This document shows positions 10,510-34,992 of a stretch of 34,992 bases of DNA, in pieces. The notes beneath the pieces were generated by a model. That model was not told where the DNA came from and did no database searches. It saw only the letters and a program-made list of their open reading frames with translations. The DNA comes from Fibrobacter sp. GTDB lineage: Bacteria > Krumholzibacteriota > Krumholzibacteriia > LZORAL124-64-63. The translations under genes and the position numbers were made by a program. Position 1 is the stretch's first letter. Every line of letters begins with the position of its first letter. Where the stretch lies: positions 765 through 35,756 of the forward strand of contig DYDD01000004.1 in assembly GCA_020718045.1 (NCBI GenBank), written 5' to 3'.

Positions 10510-10626
10510 CGTCGGACCGCGGCGGACGGGGAGATGCGGGGCCGGAGGGATCCGGCCCCGCTTTGCGACGGGGAGCGGCGTGAAGGCTTTCTACCGGTAG
10601 GTGCCCCCCTTCCCCGGGTGGCGTCG

Positions 10627-10660
10627 GGCGCCGGCTCTCCCGCAGGGCCGGCGCCTTCGT
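10627..10660 (+). terminator. Possible terminator hairpin downstream of degQ
   Basis: 12-bp stem (one G-U) GGCGCCGGCTCT/AGGGCCGGCGCC followed by a weak TTCGTT tail. Confidence 0.4.
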
Positions 10661-10743
10661 TCGCCCCGCGGCGGGAAAACTGTTTCCGTGGCGAGGCGGC
10701 GTCCGTATCATGGCCCGATCGGTCCGAACGAGAGGGGGTGGTC

Positions 10744-12795
10744 ATGTCGGCGCGGGTCAGGGTGCTGCTGGTCGACGACGACGCGGTCTACCGCGCCGCG
10801 CTCGGCGCCCGTCTGCGGGCCGCCGCCTGCGAGGTGGTCGAGACCGGCGACGGGCAGGAAGCCGTCCGGCTGGTCCGTTCGGACCGCGGTCTCGACATCG
10901 TCGTGGTCGAACTCGCGCCCCCCGGGCTGGACGGCAGCGAGATCATCGGCGAGATCAAGAAGTTCCGCCCGGAGATCCCCGTGCTCGTGCTGACGGGCTC
11001 GGGGTCCGTCGCCTCGGCCATGGACATGGGCAGCCGCGGCGCCTACCGCTACCTCGAGAAATCCGCCGATTTCGAGCTTATCGTCGCGGCCCTCGGCGAG
11101 GCCCGCCACGAGAAGCTGCGCACCATGGCGCGCCACGACATGGCCCTGCCCACCCTGGCCTCGGCGCGGGCCCGCCTGTGGGGGGGGCACAACCACCGGC
11201 CCGCCGTCGTCATCCTGGGGATGCTCCTGCTCGGGGCCGCCTACGCGCTGCCGCCGCCGCCCGGCCTGCTCTCCCTGCTCGGCGCCCCCAAGTCCGCCGC
11301 GACCGCCGTCGCCGCCGACCAGATCGCCGGCTACGCCGAATACCGGGAGATGGACGCCGGGGAGACGATTGCGTCGCACTACGCCCGCTGGCACGGGACG
11401 GCCGCGGATCGGGACGGGCGCGACGGCGGGAGCGCGGCGGCCACCGCCGGCGTCGCCCGCAAGGCCATGCTGATGGTGGCGCTGTTGATGGCGGGAGCGA
11501 TGTTCTGGGCCACCGCCGCGGTGCCGATCGGGATCACGGCGATCTTCGTGGCGGCCGCGCTGTACGCGTTCGGCATCATGCGGCCCGACCAGGTCGCCCA
11601 GGCCTTCGCCAAGGACTCGGTGGTCTTCATCTTCGGCGTGCTGGCCATGTCGCGGGTCATCACGCGCACGGGGCTGGACCGCCGCCTCGGGATGGTGCTG
11701 CTGGCGCCGGTGCGCAGCCTGCCGCTGTTCCTGTTCCTCTTCCTGCCGGTGTTCGCCCTGTCCTGCTCGTTCATCTCGGAGTCGGTGCTGGTGGCGGTGA
11801 TGATGCCGCTGCTGTTGGTCGTCCACGCCGCCTCGGTGCGCGAGCGCGGGGTCGGGCAGGACCGGCAGTTGCTGACGCTGCTGGCGCTGGGGCTGTGCTT
11901 CGCCTCGAACCTGGGCGGGCCGGGCTCGCCGGCGGCGGGTGCCCGCAACGCCGTGATGATCGGCATCCTCGAGGAGTACGGCCGGGCGCCGTCCTTCGTC
12001 GAGTGGCTGCGCTACGGCCTGCCCTTCGTCCCGGTCGCGACCCTGCTGCTGGGCGCGTACCTCGCGGTCGCCTTCCGCAAGACCGTGTTCGGGGTCCGGC
12101 TGGACGCCGCCGCCGCCATCCGGCGCACGGCCGTCACCATGGGTCCCGCCAACCGCGACGAGCGCCTGACCGGCATCGTGTTCGGCGGGGTGATCCTGCT
12201 GTGGATCGCGGCGGGATCGCGCATGGGCATGGGCGGCCCGATCCTGCTCGGCCTGGTGGCCCTGAACCTGCTACAGGTCCTGAAATGGCGCGACGTGATC
12301 AGGATCCCTTGGGAGGTCGTCTTCCTCTACGCCGGCGCCAGCGCCATCGGCAAGGGGCTCGCCGCCACCGGCGGCGCCCTCTACCTGGCCGAGAGCGCGG
12401 TGCGGCTCCTGCCCGAATCCTGGCTGCAGGGATCGGGCCTGCCCCTGGTCGCGGCGCTGCTGGCGGGCGTGACCACGAACTTCATGAGCGACGGCGCCAC
12501 CGTGGCTGCCGTCGGCCCGATCACGGTGCCCATGGCCCGCGCGGCGGCGCAGCACCCCTGGGCGGTGGGCCTGGCCACCGCGTTCGCGTCCTCGTTCGCC
12601 CACATGCTGATCATCGGCACGCCGAGCAACGCCATGGTCTACGCGATGTGCCGGGACCCGATGACGGGCGGGCACCCCGTCTCGCAGCGCGATTTCCTGC
12701 GTCATGGCGCGGCCGTCTTCGTGCTGAGCTTCGTCGTGCTGTGGTTCTGGACGATGACGACGTACTGGCAATGGCTCGGTTTCCCCGCGTCATGA
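10744..12795 (+). CDS. SLC13/DASS-family anion permease fused to an N-terminal receiver-like domain
   Basis: N-terminal VLLVDDD...LTG..S...YLEK receiver fold; then W...VP.G.T, GLDRR, SNLGG.GSP..G.RN, IPW.V..L, TNFMSD.AT and GTPSNA DASS motifs. Confidence 0.88.
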   Translation: MSARVRVLLVDDDAVYRAALGARLRAAACEVVETGDGQEAVRLVRSDRGLDIVVVELAPPGLDGSEIIGEIKKFRPEIPVLVLTGSGSVASAMDMGSRGAYRYLEKSADFELIVAALGEARHEKLRTMARHDMALPTLASARARLWGGHNHRPAVVILGMLLLGAAYALPPPPGLLSLLGAPKSAATAVAADQIAGYAEYREMDAGETIASHYARWHGTAADRDGRDGGSAAATAGVARKAMLMVALLMAGAMFWATAAVPIGITAIFVAAALYAFGIMRPDQVAQAFAKDSVVFIFGVLAMSRVITRTGLDRRLGMVLLAPVRSLPLFLFLFLPVFALSCSFISESVLVAVMMPLLLVVHAASVRERGVGQDRQLLTLLALGLCFASNLGGPGSPAAGARNAVMIGILEEYGRAPSFVEWLRYGLPFVPVATLLLGAYLAVAFRKTVFGVRLDAAAAIRRTAVTMGPANRDERLTGIVFGGVILLWIAAGSRMGMGGPILLGLVALNLLQVLKWRDVIRIPWEVVFLYAGASAIGKGLAATGGALYLAESAVRLLPESWLQGSGLPLVAALLAGVTTNFMSDGATVAAVGPITVPMARAAAQHPWAVGLATAFASSFAHMLIIGTPSNAMVYAMCRDPMTGGHPVSQRDFLRHGAAVFVLSFVVLWFWTMTTYWQWLGFPAS

Positions 12796-18703: not shown

Positions 18704-18935
18704 GTTCTGGCCACGGAATTGTCCCTGCCCATGCGGTGTTGCGACTTGGCTCCACACATCCTGCGGTGACAGGGGGCGCTCGTCGGGCACATCCTGTGCC
18801 CGACTCGCTTGGCCTTCCGGCCCTTTCGCCATCCTGGCTCCAGGGCCTGCAGGACACCCCTGTCACCACAGGATGTGTGGAGCCAAGTCGAACGGCAGCG
18901 TGGATATGGGCAGGGACGATTTCGTGGCTTGGACC
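18703..18935. mobile_element. MITE-like non-autonomous element (233 bp) with long inverted repeats and 9-bp target-site duplication
   Basis: 30-bp terminal IRs (18703-18732/18906-18935, 25/30 match), inner 34-bp IR (18742-18775/18857-18890, 33/34), internal 10-bp-stem hairpin 18782-18804, flanking direct repeats GTACGAGTA (18694-18702) and GCACGAGTA (18936-18944). Confidence 0.75.
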
Positions 18936-19018
18936 GCACGAGTAGACCATGGCCAGGATCGATGCTCGGGCCGACTTCGGGCTTGATCAGTGCCTCTGCT
19001 CTTGTACAATCCACGGAC

Positions 19019-20182
19019 ATGAGCACGCGGCCCCACCTTCGAGCGCATCTAGGACTGCACGGATGGAGCGGAGCCGTTCGGTGGTTCTGCCTCGCCGCTT
19101 CAGGTCTGGTCTGCGTTGCGGGTGCCGCCGCCGAGATCCCGTATCTGGGAACGTCCCTGCATGATTCCACGCAGATCCGGGGGATCTGCGCCGCGATCAG
19201 TGCCGTCGACGCTCCCGCGGAGGCCCGAGCCGAGTTCGTGACCGGGCTGCCCCTGGATCGCGATCGTCTGGACCTGGCCCTGGTCGACGTTCCGGTCGGC
19301 CTCACGCGGTTCCATGTCTCCATGTCCGCCGGGGGATACGACAGCGTGGCGGTGCGCGTCTATGCGCAATTCTGGCTGCGTTCGGTGGCCGCCGATTCGC
19401 TGCTGGCGCGGCGCACCCTGATCCACGAGTACATCCATGCGATCCTGCGACAACACATGCATCAGGACGACTACTCGCGATTGCCGGAGTGGTTCCAAGA
19501 GGGTGTCGCGACCTATCTCAGCGGAGAGCACGGCGATCGGTTGCGGGTGGCGCTCGCCCATCACTGGCGCGACCCGCAGGCCCTCCACGTTGGATTGGCC
19601 GAAGGTCCGGCAGTCGCGGAGCGTGTCGCCGGCTCCTGGTGGTTCGCCGCTCTCGACCACCGCTACGGGCCGGAATCCACCCGGCGGTGCCTCGCGGCGC
19701 TGGTCGCCGGCCACAACCTGGTGGATGCGCTCGCGCCGTTCGGTTGCAGCATCGATGATCTCTGGCGGGTCGCGGAAGGGATCGCCGCGTCAGAGGTGCA
19801 GTCGTTGACCGGCGAGTGCGCCGCCCGATTGCGCGAGTGCATGGAGGCCGGGTCCCTGGACTCGGAGCAACGCCGGAAGCGTTTCGGGGAGCTGATCAAG
19901 AAGCACCGCGGCACCTATGCCGCCGAATTCGCCCTTTATTTGGCGGCGAAACTCTCCTACGAGTTGCTGTACCTGCAGGATGCCCGCAGGTACCTGGACG
20001 AGCTGGCGAGCTGCCCCCGCGACTACGGGTACGGAGACGATGCCCTCTACTTGCGACTCCGGATCGCAGCCGAGTGCCACCGCGACGCCGAGGCCCGACG
20101 GTACTGTCGAGAATACTTCTCGCTGTGGCCGGACGGCGCATACTGGGGAAGGGTCATGACGATCTGCAGGGAACTGCCTTGA
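19019..20182 (+). CDS. Secreted gluzincin-like (peptidase MA-type) protein with C-terminal TPR-like repeats
   Basis: HEYIH plus LPEWFQEGVATY zinc-ligand pattern; hydrophobic N-terminus; C-terminal A.FALY..A / DDALY TPR-like helices; start uncertain. Confidence 0.65.
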   Translation: MSTRPHLRAHLGLHGWSGAVRWFCLAASGLVCVAGAAAEIPYLGTSLHDSTQIRGICAAISAVDAPAEARAEFVTGLPLDRDRLDLALVDVPVGLTRFHVSMSAGGYDSVAVRVYAQFWLRSVAADSLLARRTLIHEYIHAILRQHMHQDDYSRLPEWFQEGVATYLSGEHGDRLRVALAHHWRDPQALHVGLAEGPAVAERVAGSWWFAALDHRYGPESTRRCLAALVAGHNLVDALAPFGCSIDDLWRVAEGIAASEVQSLTGECAARLRECMEAGSLDSEQRRKRFGELIKKHRGTYAAEFALYLAAKLSYELLYLQDARRYLDELASCPRDYGYGDDALYLRLRIAAECHRDAEARRYCREYFSLWPDGAYWGRVMTICRELP

Positions 20183-22256: not shown

Positions 22257-23594
22257 TCAGGGACGGTCGTGCGGCTCCGACGGCTCGCGCGGCTCCTGGG
22301 ATGTCTGAGACGTCTGGGGCGCGAAGAGCCGGTGCAGCGTCGCCAGGTGCTGCTGGCGCTCCTGCTCGCTCTCGGCGCTCTTGAGCGACTCCATCGAGCG
22401 ACCCAGGACCTTCTTGATGAACTGCTGCAGGCTGGCGTCGACCGCCGCGGCCACCTCGTCGGACTGCTTGCGGCGCACGTAGCCGACCTGCTTCTCCTTG
22501 AGGTCCTCGAGGTAGGCGCGGAACTCGGCCACGCTGGGGCGCAGGTCCATCTCGCGGACCCAGGCGCGGAACTCCGCCAGCTCCTCCTCGACGATGCGCT
22601 CGGCCCCGGGCAGCTGCTTGCGGCGCGCGGCGAGGTTGGACTGGACGATCTCGTCGAGGTCGTCCAGACCGAAGACATAGGTCTCGTCCACCCGCGCGAC
22701 GTCGGGATGGACATCGCGCGGGACGGCGATGTCCAGGACGTACAGCGGCCGTCCGCGGCGGCGGCGCATGGCGGCGCGCACCATCTCCGGCAGGATCACG
22801 GGCTCGAGGCTGCCGGTGGTCGAGAGCACGACGTCCACGTCGGCCAGCGCGGCGGGCAGGTCCTCCCAGGGACGCGCGCGCACGAGTTCGCCCTTGCCGC
22901 CGTTGAGGTCGTCCGCCAGGGTCCGCGCGCGCTCGGGGCTGCGGTTCACCACGATCAGGCCGCCGATGCCCTGCTGCAGGAAGTGGCGGGCCGCCAGGGC
23001 GCCGGTCTCGCCGGCGCCGACCAGCAGGGCGCGGTGCCGCGGCAGGTCGGCGAAGAACTTGCGGGCCAGTTCGACGGCGGCGAAGGCGACGCTGACCGCC
23101 CCCTCGCCGATCTTCGTCTCGGTGCGGACGCGCTTGCCGGCGCGGAACGCGCCCTGGAAGGCGCGCATGAGCACCGGGCCGAGCTCGTGGTGCTCCTTGG
23201 CCAGCCGGTAGGCGTCCTTGAGCTGGCCGGAGATCTGGGGCTCGCCCAGCATCATGCTCTCCAGGCCGGCCGACACCCGGTAGAGGCGGCGCACGGCCTC
23301 CCCGTCGGTCAGGCGCACGGCGTGCTCGCCGGTGAACAGCGAGGGGTCGAGCCCGGCGCCGGCCAGGCTGCGGGTCATGCTGTCGAAGGGCGCGAAACCG
23401 GGCAGGGCCTCGACGTAGATCTCGGTGCGGTTGCAGGTGCTGACCGGCACGGCCGAGACGAACCCCGGCTCCCGCGACAGGGCCGCCAGCAGTCCGCCCA
23501 CGCGCTCGGGGTCGATGTGCGCGCGCTCGCGCACCTCGGTCGGCGCGAGCCGGTGGTCGATCCCCCACAGGTGCAGGCCGGCGCGCCCCGCCAT
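22257..23594 (-). CDS. hemA: Glutamyl-tRNA reductase
   Basis: STCNRTE, GLESMMLGEPQI.GQ, GAGETG, NRS and DIAVPRD motifs; TGATG overlap with the upstream gene. Confidence 0.96.
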   Translation of the reverse strand: MAGRAGLHLWGIDHRLAPTEVRERAHIDPERVGGLLAALSREPGFVSAVPVSTCNRTEIYVEALPGFAPFDSMTRSLAGAGLDPSLFTGEHAVRLTDGEAVRRLYRVSAGLESMMLGEPQISGQLKDAYRLAKEHHELGPVLMRAFQGAFRAGKRVRTETKIGEGAVSVAFAAVELARKFFADLPRHRALLVGAGETGALAARHFLQQGIGGLIVVNRSPERARTLADDLNGGKGELVRARPWEDLPAALADVDVVLSTTGSLEPVILPEMVRAAMRRRRGRPLYVLDIAVPRDVHPDVARVDETYVFGLDDLDEIVQSNLAARRKQLPGAERIVEEELAEFRAWVREMDLRPSVAEFRAYLEDLKEKQVGYVRRKQSDEVAAAVDASLQQFIKKVLGRSMESLKSAESEQERQQHLATLHRLFAPQTSQTSQEPREPSEPHDRP

Positions 23595-24457
23595 CACACG
23601 CCCCCGCGCAGGCTGAAGTTGTGGAAGCTGGGGATGAAGTGGTGGATGGCGCCCATCGCCAGGACCACCGCGAGGTAGGTCAGGATCGCCAGCGTGTTCA
23701 TGCGGCGGCCGCGCCAGCCCCACCAGCGGTGGCCGGCCAGGCCCGCCAGGTAGACCAGGAAGATCAGCCAGGAGGTCAGGATCTTCGGGTCGAAGGGGGT
23801 CAGGCTGCGCGCCGTCTCGGGGTCGAGCTTGTCGGCCAGGTCGTAGAGCCACAGGTGACCCAGCGCGAGGGCCCCGAACAGCAGGGGCACGCCCAGCTTG
23901 GCCGCGCCCACGCTCATGCGCTCCAGGACCTCCAGCGGCGGCAGCCGGCGGAAGAGCAGCCCGAACGTCTTGCGGGCGAGCTGGCGCGCCAGCACCAGGT
24001 AGAGGGCCGCGTAGAGGAAGCTGAGGCTCAGCGCGGTGTACGCCAGCAGCACCAGCACGGCGTGGCCGGCGTAGCCGGGGTCCTCCAGCAGTGGGTTGGC
24101 CGCCGGTTCGGCGATGGAGAACGCGCTGGCGATGAACTGCAGCAGGAACGCCACGCCCGTGACCAGGAACCCCGTCTCGCGCACGCGCAGACGGCGTTCG
24201 ACCACGGCGTAGATCAGCAGCAGGGACAGCGCCAGCAGCGACAGGAACTCCAGGGGCGAGGCCATCGGCAGGTGGTGGTGTACCCGCGCGTGGATGACGG
24301 ACGCCGCAAGGTGGGCCACCACGGTCGTCGCGAGCAGCCGCCGCGCCCAGCGGTGGGCGAACTTGCGGTTCTCGTAGAAGACCCACAGGTAGGCCACGAA
24401 GAGCAGCAGGTACAGCAGCGGTAGCAGGACCTCGCCCACCGTCAACGCGAGCCTCAT
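23594..24457 (-). CDS. CcsA/HemX-like cytochrome c assembly family membrane protein
   Basis: About 8 TM helices, HLP, H...L.Y, LPPLE.LE and DPK...W..Y motifs; lacks the full WGxxWxWD signature; ATGA overlap. Confidence 0.8.
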   Translation of the reverse strand: MRLALTVGEVLLPLLYLLLFVAYLWVFYENRKFAHRWARRLLATTVVAHLAASVIHARVHHHLPMASPLEFLSLLALSLLLIYAVVERRLRVRETGFLVTGVAFLLQFIASAFSIAEPAANPLLEDPGYAGHAVLVLLAYTALSLSFLYAALYLVLARQLARKTFGLLFRRLPPLEVLERMSVGAAKLGVPLLFGALALGHLWLYDLADKLDPETARSLTPFDPKILTSWLIFLVYLAGLAGHRWWGWRGRRMNTLAILTYLAVVLAMGAIHHFIPSFHNFSLRGGV

Positions 24458-25935
24458 GCCGCCCCTCCTTCGACGCGGGGACCGGCCGCCGCCAGCCGGT
24501 CGAGCACGGCGGCGGCCATGGTTTCGGATTCCTTGATGCAGGCGTTGACCGACACGCCGCGGTACGAGCTGCCGGACAGGTGCAGGCCCGGCAGGGCGGC
24601 GAGCCGCGTCTCCATTCGGCGCAGGCGGTCGAGGTGGCCGGGTTCGTACTGGGCGATGGCCCGCGGGTGGCGGAACACCCGGGTCATCACGGGGTTGTCG
24701 CGCAGGCCCATCAGCCCGCGCAGCTCGGCGACGGCGCGGTCCCGCAGGGCGTCGTCGCCGTCGTCCAGGACGTGCGGGTCGCCCGGACCGCCGGCCATGC
24801 AGTGCAGCAGGACCCGGCCGTCCGGCGCGCGGCCGGGGAAGATGCTGCTGGTCCACAGGGCGCCCAGCAGGCGGCTGTGTTCGCAGGTGGGGATCAGCGC
24901 GCCGAAGCCGTCGAGGTCGTGCGCCACGTCGCCGCGCGCGTAGCCCAGGGCGATCACGGCCATCGGCACGTAGGGGATGCCGTCCAGCAGGCCGGACAGC
25001 GCGGGGTCGAGCTCGCGCAGGTGGGCGGCGGCCGCGTGGGCCGGCGCGGCGTGGACGACGGCGTCGGCGTCGAAGGATGCGCCCTCGTCGACCCGCACGC
25101 GCCAGACCGCGCCGTCGCGGCTGATCGACGCGACCGCGCGGCCCGTGACGAGGGAGGCGCGCGGATCGTCGCGCAGGGCCCGCGCCAGGGCGGCGGGCAG
25201 CGCCGCCATGCCGTCACGGAAGGAATGCAGGGTGCCGGAGGGGCCGGCATCGGCGGCCCGCTTGCGCTGCTTCGAGATCGCCGCGAGCGCGCGGAACAGG
25301 CTGCCGTGGTCGCGCTCCAGCTCGACCATCCGCGGGAACGCGGCCGCGAGGCTGAGCCGGCGGGCGTCGCCGCCGAAGATGCCCTTGACCATCGGGTCGA
25401 GCATCAGCTCCGCGAAGTCGCTCCCCAGGCGCCGGCGCCCGAACTCCCAGACCGACTCGTCGGTGGCGGGATCGTCGGCGGCGCGGCCCAGGTCCCGCCG
25501 GCGCGGCACCAGGAGTTCGCCCAGCACGCGCAGCTTGGCGCGGGGGGTGAACAGATCGGTCTTGAGGAAGGCGAGCGGCGAGGCGGGGATCTCGCGCAGG
25601 CGGCCGCCGACCACCAGGAAGCGGCGCCGGGCCGCGTCGCTGCTGCGCACCAGCTCGTCGTGCAGGCCCAGGCGGTCGACCAGGCGCAGCGTCGCCGGCT
25701 CGTTGTCCAGGAAGCCGTTGGGGCCCCACTCCAGGCGCCAGCCGTCGTGGACGCTGGTGCGCAGGTTGCCGCCGACCTGCGGCGCGGCCTCCAGGACGTC
25801 GACCCGCAGGTCGAGCCCGCGCGCCGTCGCCCCCTCCAACAGCCGCAGGGCCGTGGCCAGGCCCGACACCCCGCCGCCGACCACGACCGCGCGCCGCGCG
25901 TTCCCTTGCAGCTTCGTCGTGACCTGCTCAGTCAA
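24454..25935 (-). CDS. hemY: FAD-dependent protoporphyrinogen/coproporphyrinogen oxidase (HemY type)
   Basis: VVGGGVSGL, E....GG, E.GPNGF, GIFGGD...LS...FP, GFG.L and AI.QY..GH motifs; TTG start overlapping the hemH stop. Confidence 0.93.
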   Translation of the reverse strand: MTEQVTTKLQGNARRAVVVGGGVSGLATALRLLEGATARGLDLRVDVLEAAPQVGGNLRTSVHDGWRLEWGPNGFLDNEPATLRLVDRLGLHDELVRSSDAARRRFLVVGGRLREIPASPLAFLKTDLFTPRAKLRVLGELLVPRRRDLGRAADDPATDESVWEFGRRRLGSDFAELMLDPMVKGIFGGDARRLSLAAAFPRMVELERDHGSLFRALAAISKQRKRAADAGPSGTLHSFRDGMAALPAALARALRDDPRASLVTGRAVASISRDGAVWRVRVDEGASFDADAVVHAAPAHAAAAHLRELDPALSGLLDGIPYVPMAVIALGYARGDVAHDLDGFGALIPTCEHSRLLGALWTSSIFPGRAPDGRVLLHCMAGGPGDPHVLDDGDDALRDRAVAELRGLMGLRDNPVMTRVFRHPRAIAQYEPGHLDRLRRMETRLAALPGLHLSGSSYRGVSVNACIKESETMAAAVLDRLAAAGPRVEGGAA

Positions 25936-27016
25936 GGGTCGCCTCCGCGCGGAAGGGGTCGCCGGCCAGGCGCGCCGCCAGCGAGGCGAGCCAGGTCTCG
26001 TCGAGGTTGAGCGCGGCGCCGCGGTCGAATTCGCGCACGCCCAGCTCCTCGGCTTCGCGACGCAACTCGCGGTCGAGTTCGTGCAGCGTCTCGATGTGCT
26101 CGCAGGTGAAGCTGACCGGCTGCACCAGCAGCCGGCGGCAACCGGCTCCGGCCAGGCGCCGCGTCTCGGCCGTGATCTCGGGGCCGAGCCACTTGATGGG
26201 GCCGACCTTGCTCTGGAAGGCCAGCAAGGGCGCGGGCCCGCCCGGCAGTCGGGCCAGCCAGGCGGCGTGGCCGTCCGCGGCGAGGGCCGTGCGCACGCGC
26301 TCGTGGACGGCGCTGACCGTGGCGCGGGTCTGGCTGAGGTATGGGTCCCCGCGCTTGATGAAGCTCTCGGGCAGGGAGTGCGCCACGTAGATCAGGGCGC
26401 ACTGCTGCGGGTCGGCGCCCTCGTCGGCCCAGCGTCGCAGGCCGCGGCCCGCGTTGGCGGCCAGCGTCGCGACGAAGCCGTCCAGCAGATGCCAGGCCTC
26501 GATCACGTGGACCGCGGTGCCGGGGGCGAGGCGGTCCAGCGACCGCTGCACGAAGGACAGCGTGCTGCCGTTGGTGGCGTCGGAGTACTGGGGGTACATC
26601 GGCAGGACCAGGAACTGCTCGGCGCCGCGCTCGCGCAGCCCGCGCACGGCCTCGTCGGGAAAGGGCCGCCAGTAGCGCATGGCCGGCAGCGCGATCGTCG
26701 GCCTGCCGGCTTCGCCCAGCAGCGCGGCCAGCCGGTCCCCCTGGGCGCGGGTGGTCGGGACCTGCGGCGAGCCGCCGCCGAGCCCCATCTCGAGGTACCG
26801 CCGGCGCACGGCTGGCGCGCGCCGCCAGGCGATCAGGCGGCCCAGGAGCGGGGAGAGCAGGCGCGGGATGGGGATGATCTGCGGGTCCTGGAACAGGTTG
26901 CGCAGGAAGGGCTGCACCGCGTCGGGCCCGTCGGGCCCGCCCATGCCGCACAGGATCAGGCCCGTGGTCCGGGCCGGGTCGAGGTGGTCCTGCCGGAAGC
27001 GACGCGGTGCGGTCAT
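25928..27016 (-). CDS. hemH: Ferrochelatase
   Basis: MGGPD...V.PFL.NLF.D, GGSP, MRYW.PF, PMYPQYS, AHSLP, GDPY, FQSKVGP..WL.P and EHIETL.ELD motifs. Confidence 0.95.
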   Translation of the reverse strand: MTAPRRFRQDHLDPARTTGLILCGMGGPDGPDAVQPFLRNLFQDPQIIPIPRLLSPLLGRLIAWRRAPAVRRRYLEMGLGGGSPQVPTTRAQGDRLAALLGEAGRPTIALPAMRYWRPFPDEAVRGLRERGAEQFLVLPMYPQYSDATNGSTLSFVQRSLDRLAPGTAVHVIEAWHLLDGFVATLAANAGRGLRRWADEGADPQQCALIYVAHSLPESFIKRGDPYLSQTRATVSAVHERVRTALAADGHAAWLARLPGGPAPLLAFQSKVGPIKWLGPEITAETRRLAGAGCRRLLVQPVSFTCEHIETLHELDRELRREAEELGVREFDRGAALNLDETWLASLAARLAGDPFRAEATLD

Positions 27017-27023
27017 CCTCGCC

Positions 27024-28400
27024 TCAGATGGTCTTGGAGAACAGGGGTTTCCCGCTCGTGCGGTCCAGGTAGGCGTCGAACTCCATGCACAGGTTGCGCA
27101 CGAAGAAGCGTCCCAGGTCGGTCACGCGCACGCGGTCGGGCAGGAACTCCACGAAGCCCTCGTCCTGGTAGGGGAGCAGGCGGGCCAGCCCGTCGGCCAG
27201 CAGCTCGTCCGCCGGCGCGCCGAAACCGGGCACGGTCAGCGCGTAGGGCAGCTCCAGGTTGCACATCAGGTTCAAGATCGCCAGGCGCCGCAGGCGGTCG
27301 TCGTCGCTGAGGCGGTGCCCCTTGACGACCGGCAGGTGGCCGGCGTCGACCGCGTTCTGGTAGCCGTCGAGCTCGGCGTCGTTCTGGACGAAGCGGTCGC
27401 ACACGTCGCCGATGCCGCTCATGCCGAAGGCCAGCATGTGGGGCGCCGGGCGCGTCGTGTAGCCCATGAAGTTGCGGTGCAGGCGCCGCTCCCGCAGCGC
27501 GACGGCGAGCTCGTCGTCGCGCCGGGCGAAGTGGTCGATGCCGATCCAGTCGTAGCCGGCCTCGGCGAACAGGTCGATCGCCAGGCGGAACAGCTCGAAC
27601 TTCTCGAAGCCCGACGGCATGTTGTCGGTGTTGATGAGCTTCTGCCGCGGGCGCACCCAGGGCACGTGGGCGTAGCTGAAGCAGGCCACGCGGTCGGGTC
27701 CCTGTTCGATGATGTCGCTCAGGGTGCGAGCGAAGGAGTCGCGCGTCTGCTCCGGCAGGCCGTAGACGAGGTCGAGGTTGACGCCCTCGTAGCCGGCCTC
27801 GCGGCAGGCGTGGTACAGCTCCAGCGTGCGGTCGCGCTTCTGCAGGCGGCCGATGGCCTTCTGCACCGCGGGCTCGAAGTCCTGCACGCCCAGGCTGATG
27901 CGGTTGAAGCCCTGCGCCCGCAGGAAGCGCGCCTGCTCGGGCGTGCCGATGCGCGGGTCGACCTCGATCGAGACCTCGCCCCGCGGGTCGACGGCGAAGG
28001 CGGCGCGCAGCAGCCCCAGCGCGCGCTCGACCTGCGGGTCCTTGAGGAAGTTGGGCGTGCCGCCGCCCCAGTGCAGTTGCACGACGCGCCGGCCCGGACC
28101 CAGCACGTCCACCACCGCGGCCAGCTCGCGCTCGACGCGGTCGAGGTAGGCGTCGACGGCGCCCTTCTCGGTGGAGACGACGGCATTGCAGCCGCAGTAG
28201 TGGCAGTGCTTGGCGCAGAAGGGCAAGTGCAGGTAGACCGACAGCTCGTCGCCGGGCCGCGCCGCCAGCTCGCGCAGCGCCGCGCGGAAGTCGTCCTCGC
28301 CGAAGCCGCTCGTCCAGGCCGGCACCGTCGGGTAGCTTGTGTACCGGGGGCCCGGCTTGTCGTGCTTCTCGAGAAGGTTGCGCGGCACGTCCAGGGCCAT
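27024..28400 (-). CDS. hemN: Oxygen-independent coproporphyrinogen III dehydrogenase (radical SAM)
   Basis: GPRYTSYPT, YLHLPFC...C.YCGC, HWGGGTP, IGIDHFA, LHRNFMGY motifs and FSKTI C-terminus. Confidence 0.96.
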   Translation of the reverse strand: MALDVPRNLLEKHDKPGPRYTSYPTVPAWTSGFGEDDFRAALRELAARPGDELSVYLHLPFCAKHCHYCGCNAVVSTEKGAVDAYLDRVERELAAVVDVLGPGRRVVQLHWGGGTPNFLKDPQVERALGLLRAAFAVDPRGEVSIEVDPRIGTPEQARFLRAQGFNRISLGVQDFEPAVQKAIGRLQKRDRTLELYHACREAGYEGVNLDLVYGLPEQTRDSFARTLSDIIEQGPDRVACFSYAHVPWVRPRQKLINTDNMPSGFEKFELFRLAIDLFAEAGYDWIGIDHFARRDDELAVALRERRLHRNFMGYTTRPAPHMLAFGMSGIGDVCDRFVQNDAELDGYQNAVDAGHLPVVKGHRLSDDDRLRRLAILNLMCNLELPYALTVPGFGAPADELLADGLARLLPYQDEGFVEFLPDRVRVTDLGRFFVRNLCMEFDAYLDRTSGKPLFSKTI

Positions 28401-28401
28401 C

Positions 28402-29439
28402 TCAGTCCCCCTCGCGGTACGCCTGCACGGTCGCGACCAGGGTCTCGACCGCGTCCAGGGGCGCCTCCGGCAGGATGCCGTGCCCGAGGTTGAAGACGTG
28501 GCCGGCGGCGTCGCGGCCGGCGCGGCAGATCTCCAGCGCGCGGCGGCGGATCTCCTCGTGGCTGCCGAACAGGCACAGCGGGTCCAGGTTGCCCTGCACG
28601 GCCCGGCCGGGATAGGCGCGTGCGGCGACCGCCAGGTCGAGCGTCCAGTCCACGCCGAACGCCTCGGCGTCGAGCGTGCGCACGTGGTCGAGGTAGGGGG
28701 CGCTGCCCTTCAGGAAGTAGACGCGGGGCACGCCCGCGCCCTTCAGGCCGGTCAGGATCCGCCGCAGCCCGGGCATGATGATGCGCTCGTAGTCCTGCGG
28801 GTGCAGGATGCCGCCCCAGGTGTCGAAGATCTGGACCGCATCGACGCCCGCCTCGACCTGCATCAGCAGGTAGTCGGTGATCTGGTCGGCGAGCTTGTCC
28901 AGCAGGCGCGACAGCAGCGCCGGGTCGGAGTAGAGCATCGCCTTGAGGTGCCGGTAGTCCTTGGAACCGCCGCCTTCGATCATGTAGGCCGCCAGCGTGA
29001 ACGGCGCGCCGGCGAACCCGATCAGGGGCGTGCGGTCCCCGAGCTCGCGCTTGATCATCCGCACGGCCTCGGCCACGTAGCCGGTGTGCTCGCGCGAGTC
29101 GACGACGCGCAGGGCGTCCACGTCGGCCGCCGCGCGCACGGTGTGGTGCATGCGCGGGCCGTGGTCGTCGAAGGAGAAGGGGGCGCCCATGGGCTCCAGC
29201 GGCACCAGGATGTCGCTGAACAGGATGGCCGCGTCGAAGCCGAAGCGGCGGATCGGCTGCAGGGTGACCTCGCAGGCCAGCTCCGGCGTCTTGCAGAGGC
29301 CGATGAACGAGGTCTTCTCGCGCACGGCGCGGTACTCGGGGAGGTAGCGGCCCGCCTGGCGCATGATCCAGATCGGCGTGCGCTCGTGCGCCTCGCGACG
29401 CAGGGCGGACAGGTAGGGGAGATGCTGCAGCGTGTCCAT
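28402..29439 (-). CDS. hemE: Uroporphyrinogen decarboxylase
   Basis: PIWIMRQAGRYLPEYR, DAAILFSDIL, LIGFAGAPFTLA.Y, QGNLDP and FNLGHGI motifs. Confidence 0.97.
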   Translation of the reverse strand: MDTLQHLPYLSALRREAHERTPIWIMRQAGRYLPEYRAVREKTSFIGLCKTPELACEVTLQPIRRFGFDAAILFSDILVPLEPMGAPFSFDDHGPRMHHTVRAAADVDALRVVDSREHTGYVAEAVRMIKRELGDRTPLIGFAGAPFTLAAYMIEGGGSKDYRHLKAMLYSDPALLSRLLDKLADQITDYLLMQVEAGVDAVQIFDTWGGILHPQDYERIIMPGLRRILTGLKGAGVPRVYFLKGSAPYLDHVRTLDAEAFGVDWTLDLAVAARAYPGRAVQGNLDPLCLFGSHEEIRRRALEICRAGRDAAGHVFNLGHGILPEAPLDAVETLVATVQAYREGD

Positions 29440-29691: not shown

Positions 29692-30813
29692 TCAGGGCGC
29701 CGTGTAGGGAGCGTCGCCGAAGTCCTTCACGTGGCACTTGTTGCACAGCGACCGCTGGTTGGTCACCAGGGTGTAGCCGTAGTCCTTGTTCGCCACGTCG
29801 TCGGCCGAGGCGCCGGTGTCGGTGGCCAGCGGGTGCGAGCTGATCAGGTGCGTGGACGTGAAGTCCCAGCGGCCGGCGTCCGCGAAGGGCGACGCGTGCG
29901 AACGGTGGCAGGTCAGGCACATGACCTGGTCTCCGGCCACGGGGCCCTGGGTGTAGTTCAGGGGGTCGATGGCTTCGAGGTCGACGTTGACGGCCTCGAA
30001 GGGCACCAGACCGCGGTACGAGGTGGCGGGGTCGCCGCCGGTGGTCTGGTCGGTGCTGATGTAGGCGTTGTAGGTCGCCACGACCAGGCTGCTCATGTCC
30101 TCGCCCGTCGGGTGCACGAAGTCGGTGGTGTTGCCGGCATGCAGGTCGGTGTGGCAGTTGGCGCACCACTCGCTCATGCCCGACTTGTACACGGTGTGCG
30201 AGAGGTCGGTCTCGGGCACGCCCGAGGGGCTGTTGCCCAGGGTGCGGCGGCTGTTGCCCAGGGCGATCGGGGCGGGGCTGTCGAAGTTGTAGCGGGCGCC
30301 GCCGTAGATCGGGCCGGCGCTCTCGTCGCCGTAGAGCAGACGGTAGTTCTGGTTGCCGTGCGGGTCGTGGCAGCTCGTGCAGGTCAGGTACTGGCTGTCG
30401 AAGTCGCCGCCGGGGGCCGCGGCCAGGACGGGATCCCGGACGATGCCGTAGGCCGGCGAGATGACGTTGTGGCCGTGGGTGTAGCCCTGACGGGAGCCGG
30501 CCCGGGGCGTGGTCCACGAGAAGGTCTTGGTGATCCAGTAGAAGTCGCCGCCGGCGCCCCAGCCGAAGCCGCCGGCGAGCTGGCCGTACGCGGCGTGGCA
30601 GCGCAGGCAGGTGTCGCTGGCGTTGCCGTTGTTCAGCAGGTAGGCGTTGCCCGTGGGGTGATTGACGTCCACGAGGGCGCCGTTCTGGCTGTTGTGCATG
30701 GTGTGGCAGCCGGCGCAGTAGGCCACGCCGCCGTCGTGGAACGCCAAAGCGGCGCCGCTGCTCAGGGCGAGAGCCAGGACGATGGTTGCGGAGATCAACA
30801 GTTTGTGTTTCAC
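29692..30813 (-). CDS. OmcS-like secreted hexaheme c-type cytochrome (nanowire family)
   Basis: Signal peptide ALA|FHDGGVAYCAGCHTMHNS; 6 CxxCH; blocks GGDFYWITKTFSW, GHNV, APGG..LTCTSCHDPHG, GMSEWCANCHTD, VMCLTCHRSHAS and QRSLCNKCHVKD match my recollection of G. sulfurreducens OmcS; GTG start with RBS GGAGG. Confidence 0.9.
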   Translation of the reverse strand: MKHKLLISATIVLALALSSGAALAFHDGGVAYCAGCHTMHNSQNGALVDVNHPTGNAYLLNNGNASDTCLRCHAAYGQLAGGFGWGAGGDFYWITKTFSWTTPRAGSRQGYTHGHNVISPAYGIVRDPVLAAAPGGDFDSQYLTCTSCHDPHGNQNYRLLYGDESAGPIYGGARYNFDSPAPIALGNSRRTLGNSPSGVPETDLSHTVYKSGMSEWCANCHTDLHAGNTTDFVHPTGEDMSSLVVATYNAYISTDQTTGGDPATSYRGLVPFEAVNVDLEAIDPLNYTQGPVAGDQVMCLTCHRSHASPFADAGRWDFTSTHLISSHPLATDTGASADDVANKDYGYTLVTNQRSLCNKCHVKDFGDAPYTAP

Positions 30814-30990: not shown

Positions 30991-31914
30991 CTACTCTCCT
31001 GCTTCCGTGCTGAAGATCCCGAAAGCCTGGACGCGCCCTTCGTAGCCTTGGGCCACCAGGATGCGACCGGGCGTCGCGGCGATGGCCAGGGGGTGGTAGA
31101 GCTGCCCCGGCGCGCCGCCGAACGATCCGAATTCCGACGTGAAGTTGAAGTCTCGGTCGTAGACCAAGACCGTGTGCCGCATGCGGTCCAGGACCAACAC
31201 CTCGTCGGCGGGTCCGAACGCGACGCCGACGGGGAAGGCGAGGCGCCCCGGGCTGGTGCCGGGGCGGCCGAAGGAGCCGGCGTCCGCGCCTTCGGCCGTG
31301 AGGACCAGCACGACGTGCAGCTCGCCGCCGGGAACGAAGAGACGGCCGTCGGGCGCTTCGGCGGGCCGGCCGAGTTCCGACTGTTCAGTGACGCCTTCGA
31401 GGGCGCGGTGCCAGAGCACGCGGCCGGTCGCGGCGTCGTGCTTGGTCAGCGTGCCGGCGCGCTTGTCGAGGGACATATAATGGCCGTCGGCGGTGACGAT
31501 CAGGTGGTCGGGCTGCCATTGCGGCGCGGGCCGTTCGACATCGAAGCGCACCGGTTCGCCGTGCAGGTCGAGCTTGCGCAGCGTGCGCTCCCCGGCGGCG
31601 TCGCGGTCGGCGAAGACGAAACCGCCGTCACGGTCCAGGCAGCCGTCGGCGGGGGTCGAGAGGGAGGCGGCGATACTGCTGGTGAACAGGGTGATCCCGT
31701 GTCCATCGACCACATGGAAGCACACGCCCCGCTCGTCGGTGACGCACACGTCGCCGGTCGCCGGGTCGACGCTCAGAGCGATGGGGCGGACATGGCCGGA
31801 TGTTCCCACGCCCAACTGCAGCATGCCCTCGTAGCGATAAGCGATCGTTCCTTTCGCCGCGAGCGGGCAAAGGAACAGCGTCAGGGCGGTGCAGATTGCA
31901 AGGCATCTTGTCAT
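30991..31914 (-). CDS. Secreted NHL-repeat beta-propeller protein
   Basis: Signal peptide; FG..G..PG.L.FP.GVA and FGSFGGAPGQLYHP.AIA NHL repeats; ATG 31914 preferred over the upstream GTG. Confidence 0.85.
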   Translation of the reverse strand: MTRCLAICTALTLFLCPLAAKGTIAYRYEGMLQLGVGTSGHVRPIALSVDPATGDVCVTDERGVCFHVVDGHGITLFTSSIAASLSTPADGCLDRDGGFVFADRDAAGERTLRKLDLHGEPVRFDVERPAPQWQPDHLIVTADGHYMSLDKRAGTLTKHDAATGRVLWHRALEGVTEQSELGRPAEAPDGRLFVPGGELHVVLVLTAEGADAGSFGRPGTSPGRLAFPVGVAFGPADEVLVLDRMRHTVLVYDRDFNFTSEFGSFGGAPGQLYHPLAIAATPGRILVAQGYEGRVQAFGIFSTEAGE

Positions 31915-32003
31915 GGGGCTGTCACCGAATCTGTTGGTGGATTCACAGCGAGGGCGAGTCGGAGTCGCAAGCAACGCTGTTGTTGTCACCCATTGTGAAC
32001 GCT

Positions 32004-32203: not shown

Positions 32204-34992
32204 TCAGCGCTTCTCGCGGATCTTCTCGGTGTGACATCCGATGCACAGCTTCCCGCCGGCATCCTCCCGGAGGACCTTTTCGAACTCAGAGCCGTGAGGG
32301 TCGTGGCAACTGGAGCAGACGATCTCGCCGCCATGGACCGGATCCGTCGTGCCGGCGCCCAGAGGGTGGTCGGTGTGCTCCTGCCAGGTGTGGCAGCGCA
32401 GACAGGGGTCGGGACCGGCGGGTGCCGACCCGGGAGCGCCTACGGCGGCATGGGGGTTGTGGCACATCGTGCACTGACGGCCCTCGGGATCGGGGTGCCG
32501 GTGGCTCGACGACTTCATGCGCTCGGCCTGCTCGGCGTGGCAGCGTCCGCAGACGGCGACCTGGCTGCGGGGCAGCAGGTTGGACACCGGCGAGGCGTGG
32601 GGAGTGTGGCACTCCAGGCAGGCCCGCTCGCCCGCAAGCGGGGCGTGGAGGGTCGCGCCCTTGAGTTCCTCGGCCAGACCGGGATGGCAGGCCAGGCACA
32701 GGCGCTTTTCGGCTCCCGTCTGCACCTTGCCGCCGGCGTCGTGGCAAGCCTTGCAGTCGCGCTTGGCGTACGGCTGGTGGACGTGCCCGTGCGTCAAACC
32801 GGCGTGCGTGCTGGCGTGCGGATCGTGGCAGGCCATGCAGTCGGCCGTCCCGAGATCGAAGTTCAAGTGCGGTTTGGCCAGCGCGGCGCCCGCGAGGTCG
32901 TGGCAGGTCGCGCAGAGGGCGGGCACCGCCTTGGACAGGAGATCCGCTTGGTCCGTGCCGTGGGCGTCGTGGCAGGTGGCGCACTTCCCGTCGGCGAACG
33001 GTTGGTGCCGCCTCGGCAGCGACTGGGCCGTTTGCAGGTCCTGGTGACAGGTCCAACAGAGAGCCGTGCGCGCCGTGCGCAGCAGGGCGGGCTGGTCCGA
33101 GCCGTGGGGATCGTGGCATGCGGCGCAGTCGCCGTCGCGGGCGGGCCGGTGGGCCAGATCCGCCCGGGGGAACAGCGTGCCGCCGCCGTGGCAGACCGCG
33201 CAGGCGGCGCCGACGCCGCCGGCTTTCAACAAGTGCTCGCCGCGGGCGGCGTGGGCGTCGTGGCAGGCGCTGCACTCGCCGTCGTCGAAGGGGGCGTGGG
33301 GGTGTTTGCGCGTCGCCGTCAGCCCGTCGTGGCAGCCGGCGCACAGCGCCTTCTGGTCGGCGATGGGCGCGGGGCCGTCGTGGCAGGTCGCGCAGTCACG
33401 GTCGTCGAAGGGCGGGTGCGAATTCGGCCGGATCAGCGCCGCCTGCGTCGAGTGGTGCGGCGCGTGGCAGCCGGTGCAGTCCAGCCCGAGGAGGTCGCGC
33501 CCGAGGTGGGCGCCCTTCAGGGCGTCGTCGTTCTCGTCGTGGCAGCGGAAGCAGAGCTCGGTCGCCGGCGCCGCCAGTAGCGAGGGCTGCGCGCCGCCGT
33601 GCGGGAGGTGGCAGGTCGTGCAGTCGTCCTGGATCGGGGGATGGACCGACTTGGCCGCCGCGACGTCGACGATGTCGTTGTGGCAGATCGTGCAGAGCAG
33701 GGGCTCCGGTGCGGAGAGCAGGTCGCCGCGAGCCGCGCGGTGGGCGTCGTGACAGGCCGTGCAGTTGCCGGCGGCGACCGGCGCGTGCGCGTGGCCGCCG
33801 GCGCCCGGGCCGGTGTCGTGGCAGACCAGGCAGATCTCCGCAGCCGGGCGGCGCAGCATGGCGACCTCGTCGCCGCCGTGGGGGCGGTGACAGTCGCCGC
33901 AGAGGCCGTCCGCGACGGGCGGGTGCAGGCTGCCCCCCTCGGGGCGGACGGCCTGGTCGGCGTGGCAGGCCAGGCAAGTCGCCGCGGGCGTCGTCTTCAA
34001 CAGCGATGGCTGATCGGCGCGGTGCGGCACGTGGCAGGCCAGGCAGTCGCCGCGCGCCGCCACATCGTGGGGATGGGAGGTGACGAGCTCGACCTTGACC
34101 TTGAGGTGGCAACCGAGGCAGAGGGTCCCGGCCTTGGCGGTCAGCAGGCCCGGTTCGGTCGAGCTGTGCGGGTCGTGGCAGGCGGAACAGTCCCTCTTGA
34201 CGAAGGGCGTGTGGTCCGAAACGGCGGCGGCCGCACCGTCGTCGATCTCGCTGTGGCAACCGAGGCACAGTTCTCCGGGCTGTGCGGTCAGCAGCGCGGC
34301 CCGTTCGCCGCCGTGGGCGTCGTGGCAGGCGGCGCAGTCGCCCCCGGCGACCGGTGCGTGGACCACGTTGCGGCGGAACGGATCGTCCCCGTGGCACCCG
34401 AAACAGAGTCGGCGCAGTTCGGTCCTGATCATCCCGGAGTGCGCGCTGCCATGGGCGGCGTGGCAGTCCAGGCAGGAGCCGTCGGCGACGGGGGCGTGGG
34501 GCGTCGCGGCGCCGGCGCCGGGCTGGTCGTGGCAGGACAGGCACAGGTCGTTACCCTGGGCGACCAGCGCGGTGCGGCCGTCGGCGTCTTTCACGTGGCA
34601 GGCGGCGCAGTCGCGGTCCCGGACGGGCGCGTGCTGCACGGCCAGCAGGAGCTTCGACGCGTCGGCGCTGTGGGGGTCGTGGCAGGACGTGCAGCCGACG
34701 GTCGCGTCCGCGTCGCCGTGCGCCTGCGCGAGCTTGCGGACATCGCGGTGGCAGGACAGGCAGAGGGCGTCGACGGCGACGTCCAGCAGATGCGGCTCGG
34801 CGCTGCCGTGGGGCCGGTGGCAGGCGGCGCAGCCCTGCTTCTTCAGCGGGGCGTGGACGAACGCGCGCGAGAAAGCGGCGCTGTCGTGGCAGGTCAGGCA
34901 GGACGCGTCGCCCTTCGCGGGCAGCAGGTCCGGCTGTCCGCTGCCGTGGGGGTCGTGGCAGGCGACGCAGCCGCCGTCCCGCACCGGCGGGT
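32204..34992 (-). CDS. Giant multiheme cytochrome c with doubled-CXXCH repeats (5'-truncated, at least 39 hemes)
   Basis: 39 CxxCH motifs counted in 926 aa; repeating H.P....CxxCH.PH.S....LL......LCxxCH unit; frame open to the window edge. Confidence 0.95.
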   Translation of the reverse strand, partial: PPVRDGGCVACHDPHGSGQPDLLPAKGDASCLTCHDSAAFSRAFVHAPLKKQGCAACHRPHGSAEPHLLDVAVDALCLSCHRDVRKLAQAHGDADATVGCTSCHDPHSADASKLLLAVQHAPVRDRDCAACHVKDADGRTALVAQGNDLCLSCHDQPGAGAATPHAPVADGSCLDCHAAHGSAHSGMIRTELRRLCFGCHGDDPFRRNVVHAPVAGGDCAACHDAHGGERAALLTAQPGELCLGCHSEIDDGAAAAVSDHTPFVKRDCSACHDPHSSTEPGLLTAKAGTLCLGCHLKVKVELVTSHPHDVAARGDCLACHVPHRADQPSLLKTTPAATCLACHADQAVRPEGGSLHPPVADGLCGDCHRPHGGDEVAMLRRPAAEICLVCHDTGPGAGGHAHAPVAAGNCTACHDAHRAARGDLLSAPEPLLCTICHNDIVDVAAAKSVHPPIQDDCTTCHLPHGGAQPSLLAAPATELCFRCHDENDDALKGAHLGRDLLGLDCTGCHAPHHSTQAALIRPNSHPPFDDRDCATCHDGPAPIADQKALCAGCHDGLTATRKHPHAPFDDGECSACHDAHAARGEHLLKAGGVGAACAVCHGGGTLFPRADLAHRPARDGDCAACHDPHGSDQPALLRTARTALCWTCHQDLQTAQSLPRRHQPFADGKCATCHDAHGTDQADLLSKAVPALCATCHDLAGAALAKPHLNFDLGTADCMACHDPHASTHAGLTHGHVHQPYAKRDCKACHDAGGKVQTGAEKRLCLACHPGLAEELKGATLHAPLAGERACLECHTPHASPVSNLLPRSQVAVCGRCHAEQAERMKSSSHRHPDPEGRQCTMCHNPHAAVGAPGSAPAGPDPCLRCHTWQEHTDHPLGAGTTDPVHGGEIVCSSCHDPHGSEFEKVLREDAGGKLCIGCHTEKIREKR

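Follow-up and report, generated by a model that had tools for sequence, protein, structure and literature searches.

The closest described counterpart of the locus analysed here is the osc (omcS-companion) cluster of Geobacter sulfurreducens, reportedly described by Shen et al. in 2025 in Cell Chem Biol. According to the accessible part of PMC13194489, the products of oscI (GSU2495) and oscJ (GSU2494) are both listed as periplasmic and both genes belong to the omcS-companion operon; the available text of bioRxiv 10.1101/2025.11.06.686851 and of PMC2996986 gives 26 heme motifs and ~70 kDa for GSU2495. The excerpts of the same preprint state that an eight-gene block, GSU2500-2493, follows the OmcS-like hexaheme gene GSU2501 in every Geobacter genome having it. 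It has been proposed that OscH folds the OmcS nanowires, that OscE-G secrete them and that OscD shapes them (PMC13194489, accessible part), and OmcS genes have been reported earlier in Krumholzibacteria (bioRxiv 10.1101/2020.09.22.307553, as far as its available text goes). The window, by which we mean the whole analysed stretch of 34,992 nucleotides, corresponds to C3:765-35756 (contig DYDD01000004.1) of a 3.24-Mb genome in 431 contigs, deposited as Fibrobacter sp. (GCA_020718045.1) and placed by GTDB in the Krumholzibacteriota. At its very end it carries most of a gene for a cytochrome with 42 predicted hemes, which is the subject of this report.

Compared with the osc cluster, the two large multiheme proteins appear here as one. 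The encoded protein is very probably a fusion of an OscI-type and an OscJ-type cytochrome within an OmcS cluster, so that the "giant" cytochrome seen in the sequence would be an already named pair that has been joined. The reading that we favour as a whole, namely a soluble periplasmic 42-heme OscI+OscJ-type fusion that forms a heme wire toward an OmcS-like filament, is assigned a probability of about 60%.

The 42-heme gene is encoded on the minus strand, with its open reading frame (ORF) at 32204..34990 of the window and the stop codon at 32204-32206. The segment 32204..34992 contains the C-terminal 928 codons plus stop (hemes 4-42), as assigned from ORF, motifs, Pfam, orthologues and contigs; it translates to 928 residues (P0001). 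In the original prediction, made from the letters of the window, the frame had been described as still open at the window edge. This is true of the 5′ end, which is the N-terminus, and results from a 54-N scaffold gap (C3:35757-35810) that begins exactly at the window edge; the frame is, however, not open-ended but stops at 42 hemes and 1,033 aa. Past the gap it runs on for 86 codons, which encode two more CxxCH motifs, a Sec signal peptide and the starting Met. The first 105 codons (Met, signal peptide and hemes 1-3) are thus found outside the window at C3:35757-36069, and 19 of them fall into the gap. Runs of N of various sizes are common throughout the assembly.

Six genomes of the same genus carry the 42-heme gene. 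The orthologues from G002 and G003 have 1,033 aa and show zero indels relative to the window gene (91% and 86% identity), those from G005 and G001 have 1,027 and 1,028 aa, and all four have 42 CxxCH motifs. In these four orthologues a 19-residue stretch with one CxxCH spans the position of the gap, and an alignment of 63 relatives likewise has one motif at this position. The frame in G004 is not clean (38 motifs, with the N-terminal part in another frame) and that in G006 is truncated by a contig end (33 motifs). As a side observation, G004 has a second copy of the gene (G004:C30:8632-11622), which is split over several frames and has a TGA inside one match.

The assembly was checked by alignment of public contigs to C3:31471-37254. 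A 13,701-nt contig from run X1, possibly the source sample, matches the whole tested region without a single difference or gap. From run X3, which belongs to a different study, a 4,657-nt contig spans the entire gene and the scaffold gap with 139 differences and, again, 0 gaps. Joints inside the gene that were encountered in X3 have sides of only 20-27 letters and were discounted as cross-matches from repeats or other organisms. Neither a misassembled repeat nor a frameshift upstream in the 42-heme gene was seen in these comparisons. Because the orthologues from the same genus have 42 motifs and because contigs of two runs bridge the gap without change in length, the full gene codes for 1,033 aa with 42 hemes and has been assembled correctly.

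The 39 CxxCH motifs that had been counted initially were all recovered, in 928 residues instead of 926, which corresponds to one motif per 23.8 aa. In 1,000 shuffles of the same residues, the mean number of CxxCH was 0.62 and the maximum was 5. All 78 cysteines of the window part are located inside CxxCH motifs, and neither CxxxCH nor CxxxxCH occurs in these 928 residues. The scan with Paired_CXXCH_1 (PF09699), which the original prediction had named as a check, gave 635.8 bits (cut-off 20.6) in 19 stretches, and the doubled-CXXCH model TIGR01905 gave 602.1 bits in 20 stretches. Covalent attachment of heme is predicted from the motifs at 42 sites, at a density of 23.9 aa per heme. The ORF is the largest of 27 in this genome that have at least three CxxCH motifs.

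The additional histidines had been described as regular, and counting bears this out: there are 27 H-x-P, 18 CxxCH-x-[PA]-H, and 14 H-x-P which are positioned 4-9 residues ahead of a motif. Across 61 full-length relatives, 84 Cys columns and 42 motif-His columns are conserved, together with 40 (at 90% or more) to 41 (at 70% or more) His columns outside the motifs. This amounts to about one conserved distal His per heme and supports bis-His ligation nearly throughout the chain, as had been suggested. In addition, 19 Pro columns are conserved at 70% or more, and most of them adjoin heme ligands. Along the chain, motifs in the context H-x-P...CxxCH-x-P-H take turns with those in the context L-L...L-CxxCH. 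This alternation is broken after hemes 9, 26 and 35, where a CxxCH is not followed by x-P-H and the next motif is only 17-22 residues away. The pattern suggests that the chain may be built from four modules of 9, 17, 9 and 7 hemes.

A homologue database search returned 1,720 relatives, of which the best 120 were examined. Exactly 42 CxxCH motifs are present in 62 of the 72 listed relatives with at least 986 aa, for which the named sources are Zixibacteria, GN15, Krumholzibacteria, Latescibacteria and Gemmatimonadaceae. A second size class, with 600-800 aa, has exactly 26 motifs in 33 of 38 listed cases. We collected 73 genome loci with the 26-heme class, which were found using a 10-sequence alignment. 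Most of them are from Desulfobulbales and other Thermodesulfobacteriota; Hydrosulfovibrio ferrireducens and one locus from Desulfuromonadaceae are also included. In 48 of these 73 loci the 26-heme ORF is directly followed by a 16-heme ORF. Nine loci have 26 + 15 hemes, one has 25 + 16 hemes, four have a single fused 42-heme ORF, and in 11 cases the genes are partial or truncated by contig ends.

In the related loci, the first ORF aligns to residues 1-540 of P0001 and the second to residues 541-928. Judged from these alignments, a 26-heme and a 16-heme unit are fused in the window protein, with the junction exactly at the module end after heme 26. The OscI-like equivalent of the separate 26-heme ORFs would be encoded at 33371..34992 and the OscJ-like equivalent of the separate 16-heme ORFs at 32204..33370, both on the minus strand. 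The OscI-like part terminates at a module end, where a CxxCH lacks x-P-H and the distance between motifs (17 aa) is smaller than anywhere else in the protein. When the two units are encoded by separate ORFs, each of these carries a signal peptide. Many 26-heme homologues from Thermodesulfobacteriota (e.g. L039, L040, L015, L065 and L074) have a lipobox-like Cys at the end of the signal peptide, which the fused window protein lacks, and these split homologues may be membrane-tethered. Both forms occur even within the class to which the genome of the window belongs, where G034, G019 and G033 have the split form.

The original prediction had also pointed to an OmcS-like protein in the neighbourhood. 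A true OmcS homologue is indeed encoded two genes away from the 42-heme gene, in conserved gene order (29692..30813, minus strand). This 373-aa hexaheme protein with six CxxCH motifs matches OmcS (6ef8_A) over its full length (phmmer E 4.2e-44), and in the alignment the mature protein, predicted to begin with FHDGGVA.C.GCHTMHNS, starts at residue 1 of OmcS. The genome contains at least two other paralogues of the OmcS family (G000:C304:30-956 and G000:C298:18296-19273, with 61% and 45% identity to the window copy). Co-occurrence was counted over 41 related genomes, which as kin are not independent of each other. An OmcS-like match (E<=1e-20) is present in 19 of the 41, and all 19 also have a large OscI/J-like match (E<=1e-58). 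The other 22 genomes have a large related cytochrome in four cases and weak or no matches in 18.

The 42-heme gene is embedded in a cluster with the conserved order large outer-membrane beta-barrel, LpoB-like lipoprotein, CsgG-like protein, prolyl isomerase, 42-heme cytochrome, NHL propeller and OmcS-family hexaheme. This order of seven genes is kept in all five other genera of the same family that were inspected, all of which have the fused gene, and in two genomes of the same genus. Directly upstream of the 42-heme gene is the prolyl isomerase (450 aa, Pfam Rotamase_2), and directly downstream is an NHL-repeat beta-propeller of 332 aa (30991..31989, Pfam NHL), for which OscD or OscK are candidate counterparts. 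Adjacent genes at L001:1684-3329 code for the 189-aa lipoprotein, which is LpoB-like by Pfam (E 3.4e-6), and for a 359-aa protein which has no family match and is CsgG-like by language-model features only (0.95, 180 shared). This pair may form an outer-membrane channel of the CsgG/LpoB type. All of these genes are on the minus strand. Across the 73 loci, phmmer detected LpoB-like proteins in 61, a prolyl isomerase in 48, NHL proteins in 58 and OmcS-like proteins in 54, and the prolyl isomerase is located directly upstream of the 26-heme gene where this was inspected. One protein from the family search, P0120 (1,217 aa), has a SurA-like prolyl isomerase and a 26-heme cytochrome in one frame with a mid-chain segment that resembles a signal peptide. 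As it is a single sequence from one contig, and thus either a real fusion or a case of a lost stop codon, we did not use it as evidence.

An export signal is to be expected, because attachment of c-type heme takes place outside the cytoplasm. Extension along the contig, which had been proposed for the determination of heme count and anchor type, indeed revealed an N-terminus in which positive charges at the start are followed by a hydrophobic core and an A-x-A site; a Cys that could belong to a lipobox is absent. This Sec signal peptide is the only 19-residue stretch of the protein with a Kyte-Doolittle mean above 1.6. The 42-heme protein is therefore probably a soluble periplasmic cytochrome, whose mature chain would have about 1,002 aa and a mass of roughly 104 kDa, or 130 kDa when the hemes are included. 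A CcsA/HemX-like gene is also encoded in the window.

An AlphaFold (AF2) model was built from 64 sequences and has a mean pLDDT of 85.4 and a pTM of 0.59. MtrA (6r2q_A) is the sole match in a sequence search of the PDB (E 2.8e-21) and also the sole significant match with Foldseek (E 1.1e-5). In the VIA superposition, residues 201-426 of the model match residues 78-333 of MtrA (Z 13.0, rmsd 3.8 A, 215 residues, 27% identity), and the next best structure has a Z of 4.0. The match to the rod fold of MtrA covers this ten-heme stretch of the model. The NCBIfam model for the DmsE decaheme family (TIGR03508) reaches 401.7 bits in nine stretches along the chain. The model thus suggests that the protein is locally an MtrA-like heme rod, and we infer that its overall shape is elongated. 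The claim of a heme-dense single-chain cytochrome is in agreement with the heme density, the export signal and the heme wire of MtrA as best match. The ten hemes of MtrA are reported to span about 8 nm (Edwards et al. 2020). When this length is extrapolated, a straight chain of 42 hemes would reach roughly 34 nm, which is to be taken as an estimate.

Taken by itself, the function as an electron conduit that serves an OmcS-type filament has about even odds; of the readings considered, a heme wire in the periplasm that would feed the filament, as the original prediction had proposed, fits best. The protein would be exported unfolded by the Sec system and loaded with heme in the periplasm, where the adjacent prolyl isomerase may assist in its folding. 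An elongated chain of closely packed low-spin hemes would form, and electrons would pass from a periplasmic or inner-membrane pool along this chain to the outer-membrane base of the OmcS-like filament. The constant number of 42 hemes, whether split or fused, argues for a length constraint or a fixed set of contacts, and likewise for the two Geobacter proteins functioning as a unit.

A more speculative extension, which we consider rather doubtful, treats the heme number as a molecular ruler: OscI and OscJ would always total 42 hemes and form one rigid end-to-end wire from the inner-membrane side to the base of the filament. Under this extension the natural fusion, which is found in Krumholzibacteria, Zixibacteria, Latescibacteria and Gemmatimonadota-type sequences, would provide Rosetta-stone evidence for head-to-tail docking of OscI and OscJ. 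As a corollary, the main client of the prolyl isomerase could be the proline-rich 42-heme cytochrome and not OmcS alone.

Several points weigh against the favoured reading. Four genomes (G025, G029, G032 and G035) have a large related cytochrome and no OmcS-like match at E<=1e-20 with the query that was used. Neither the 736-aa barrel protein nor the 359-aa protein has a counterpart in the 73 loci according to tblastn and phmmer, and therefore the cluster differs from theirs. Confidence in the overall shape of the model is no more than moderate (pTM 0.59), and the protein was modelled without hemes. Contigs from run X2, an RNA library, match several parts of the gene and its junction with the upstream gene without any difference; they fit expression but prove no transcription, as no silent control stretch was compared. 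The equation with OscI and OscJ is based on agreement in size, in the number of hemes and in gene order and on the presence of an OmcS homologue, and not on the Geobacter sequences. No G. sulfurreducens sequence was among the listed matches of the family search or among the 73 loci, a homologue search with the 26-heme protein from Desulfuromonadaceae gave no match named Geobacter among the best 120 listed, and of the control genomes in a genome search E. coli alone gave a match. Finally, the accessible part of PMC13194489 proposes roles for OscD, OscE-G and OscH only and none for OscI or OscJ, so that the conduit role is one that we infer ourselves.

Three other functions have to be weighed, each of which we regard as improbable. 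One is a porin-cytochrome conduit, in which part of the rod is threaded through the beta-barrel of the cluster, as MtrA is in MtrB, and the protein itself would carry electrons across the outer membrane to the OmcS-like filament. MtrA is the only clear relative both in structure and in sequence, and the cluster does encode a candidate barrel (736 aa, L001:3371-5581, minus strand). The model of this protein (pLDDT 86.7, pTM 0.68) has about 28 strands and a beta-sandwich inserted at residues 267-430, and its C-terminal residue is aromatic. The gene stays next to the cluster in the five other genera and the two same-genus genomes that were inspected. The alignment with MtrB is the longest among known barrels (427 residues, Z 14.2). 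This Z value is shared with many others, however, and none of the large barrels stands out among the matches of the predicted one (Z 13-16, rmsd 8-11 A, TM 0.2-0.3). It has no Pfam or NCBIfam match, and its family is narrow, with 75 representatives among 1.84 billion proteins. Since it is also absent from the 73 loci with the 26-heme class, it is not a general partner of this cytochrome family. Furthermore, the CsgG/LpoB-like proteins of the cluster possibly provide another channel. A complex prediction for barrel residues 40-736 and the last 300 residues of the cytochrome gave a score of 0.00 without controls and is no evidence either way.

Capacitor behaviour is known for periplasmic cytochromes in Geobacter, and the 42 low-spin hemes might likewise be an electron store for times when no external acceptor can be reached, and not a directional wire. 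Such a role is in keeping with the high heme density, with the soluble and unanchored form of the protein and with the 27 ORFs of this organism that have at least three CxxCH motifs. Storage alone would require neither a heme number that is fixed at 42 (or 26+16) across phyla nor the tight linkage to OmcS-type genes, and the many split homologues with a lipobox are probably tethered to the membrane. We consider such storage an unlikely function.

We hold a similarly low opinion of a role in assembly, where the cytochrome would be a scaffold, a primer or a quality control for the polymerisation or export of OmcS-like subunits and not an electron carrier. The proposals that other members of the cluster fold (OscH), secrete (OscE-G) and shape (OscD) the filament (PMC13194489, accessible part) speak for such a role, as does the connection of the eight-gene block with nanowire maturation and secretion (bioRxiv 10.1101/2025.11.06.686851, available text). 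The 84 conserved Cys and about 82 conserved His columns show, though, that selection acts on each of the heme sites, for which there would be no need in a scaffold, and the closest relative, MtrA, is an electron carrier. That the gene is an artefact of assembly, a collapsed or chimeric repeat whose heme count is meaningless, can practically be dismissed: it is internally repetitive, contains a scaffold gap and attracts short cross-matches of other contigs in run X3, but the four same-genus orthologues agree in motif number and nearly or fully in length, contigs of two runs, one of them from another study, span gene and gap with 0 gaps, and a count of exactly 42 motifs is shared by 62 of the 72 long relatives listed.

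These findings bear on a question that is under debate, namely whether electrons cross the periplasm to cytochrome filaments via small diffusing triheme cytochromes or via fixed conduits. The occurrence of the two proteins as one chain in several phyla, a sum that is held at 42 hemes and the co-occurrence with OmcS-type genes lead to a testable hypothesis, that of one long fixed wire. The fused gene also offers a natural single-gene construct for expression and structural work. Beyond this, OmcS-type machinery, here with its own barrel and a flank of heme-synthesis genes, is extended to Krumholzibacteria-like groundwater bacteria, which matters for the cycling of iron in aquifers.

At the edge of the cluster, and in opposite orientation to it, a 301-aa cytochrome with seven CxxCH motifs and an N-terminal hydrophobic helix is encoded (L001:5719-6624, plus strand). 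Of the 12 related loci inspected, 6 have a homologue of this 7-heme cytochrome next to the cluster (L084, L085, L086, L091, L092 and L093). On both sides the region continues with genes for heme biosynthesis, which were assigned by Pfam, are all on the minus strand and are regarded as context and not as part of the cytochrome. The upstream flank contains ORFs for hemC, hemD, hemB and hemL (L001:6507-10040). The flank within the window (22257..29439) consists of hemE (28402-29439), hemN (27024-28400), hemH (25928-27016), a hemY-type oxidase gene (24454-25935), the CcsA/HemX-like gene (23594-24856) and hemA (about 22257-23603). These flanks are kept in two same-genus genomes (G002 and G003) and in G019, and not in the five other genera inspected.

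Some further observations concern the remainder of the window. Between 18800 and 21700 the G+C content is 0.63-0.67 as compared to about 0.72, and this stretch has two long ORFs without a Pfam match, of which the one at 18809-20182 (plus strand) contains an HExxH motif. A 753-aa ORF at 10534-12795 (plus strand) combines a response-regulator receiver with a membrane domain of the sodium:sulfate symporter/citrate-transporter type, and is followed by genes for a PPK2 polyphosphate kinase and a sigma-54 activator. Scans of the window with Rfam and for tRNAs gave no match.

When the 42-heme protein is compared with known cytochromes, it resembles MtrA/DmsE (6R2Q chain A) in the doubled-CXXCH repeat and in the spacing of about 24 aa per heme. 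It has 42 hemes in 1,033 aa as opposed to 10 in about 300 aa, corresponding to about four MtrA lengths in tandem, and by its sequence it is not a member of the MtrA/DmsE decaheme family (TIGR03508). The gene is linked to an OmcS-type filament gene and not to one for a decaheme surface cytochrome, and neither an MtrB nor an MtrC homologue was identified. With OmcS (6EF8) the protein shares only CXXCH units, and there is no sign of it being a filament subunit. The likeness to OmcS belongs to the neighbouring 373-aa gene product, which is homologous over its full length and agrees with OmcS in having six hemes and in the mature N-terminus. The GSU1996-type dodecaheme "nanowire" cytochromes of Geobacter are built from c7-type triheme domains; a solved structure of this type was found neither in the PDB sequence search nor among the fold matches of the 42-heme protein, and what is shared with them is the idea of one chain as a linear periplasmic heme array.

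The comparison with the osc cluster is much closer. A 42-heme form was not found in the literature searched; the primary osc paper and its supplements, which were outside this search, may describe one. Common features are a 26-heme unit of ~650-690 aa which is followed by a second multiheme unit, an OscH-type prolyl isomerase gene adjacent to it on the upstream side, genes for an NHL protein and for an OmcS-family hexaheme, and predicted export to the periplasm. Candidates for an OscE/F/G-type channel at the window locus are the LpoB-like lipoprotein, which is found in 61 of the 73 loci, and the 359-aa protein, which is CsgG-like by language-model features only. Differences are that both units belong to one polypeptide, which has only one signal peptide and lacks a lipobox, that the OmcS-like gene is located downstream in the gene order of the window, and that the host is Krumholzibacteria-like according to the names of its closest listed relatives. 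Two further features set the cluster of the window apart, namely the gene for a large beta-barrel, without counterpart in split-type loci, and its position inside a heme-biosynthesis operon. In summary, the locus is a fused variant of the known osc system and no new kind of system, and its main value lies in the testable idea that OscI and OscJ act together as one wire of fixed length.

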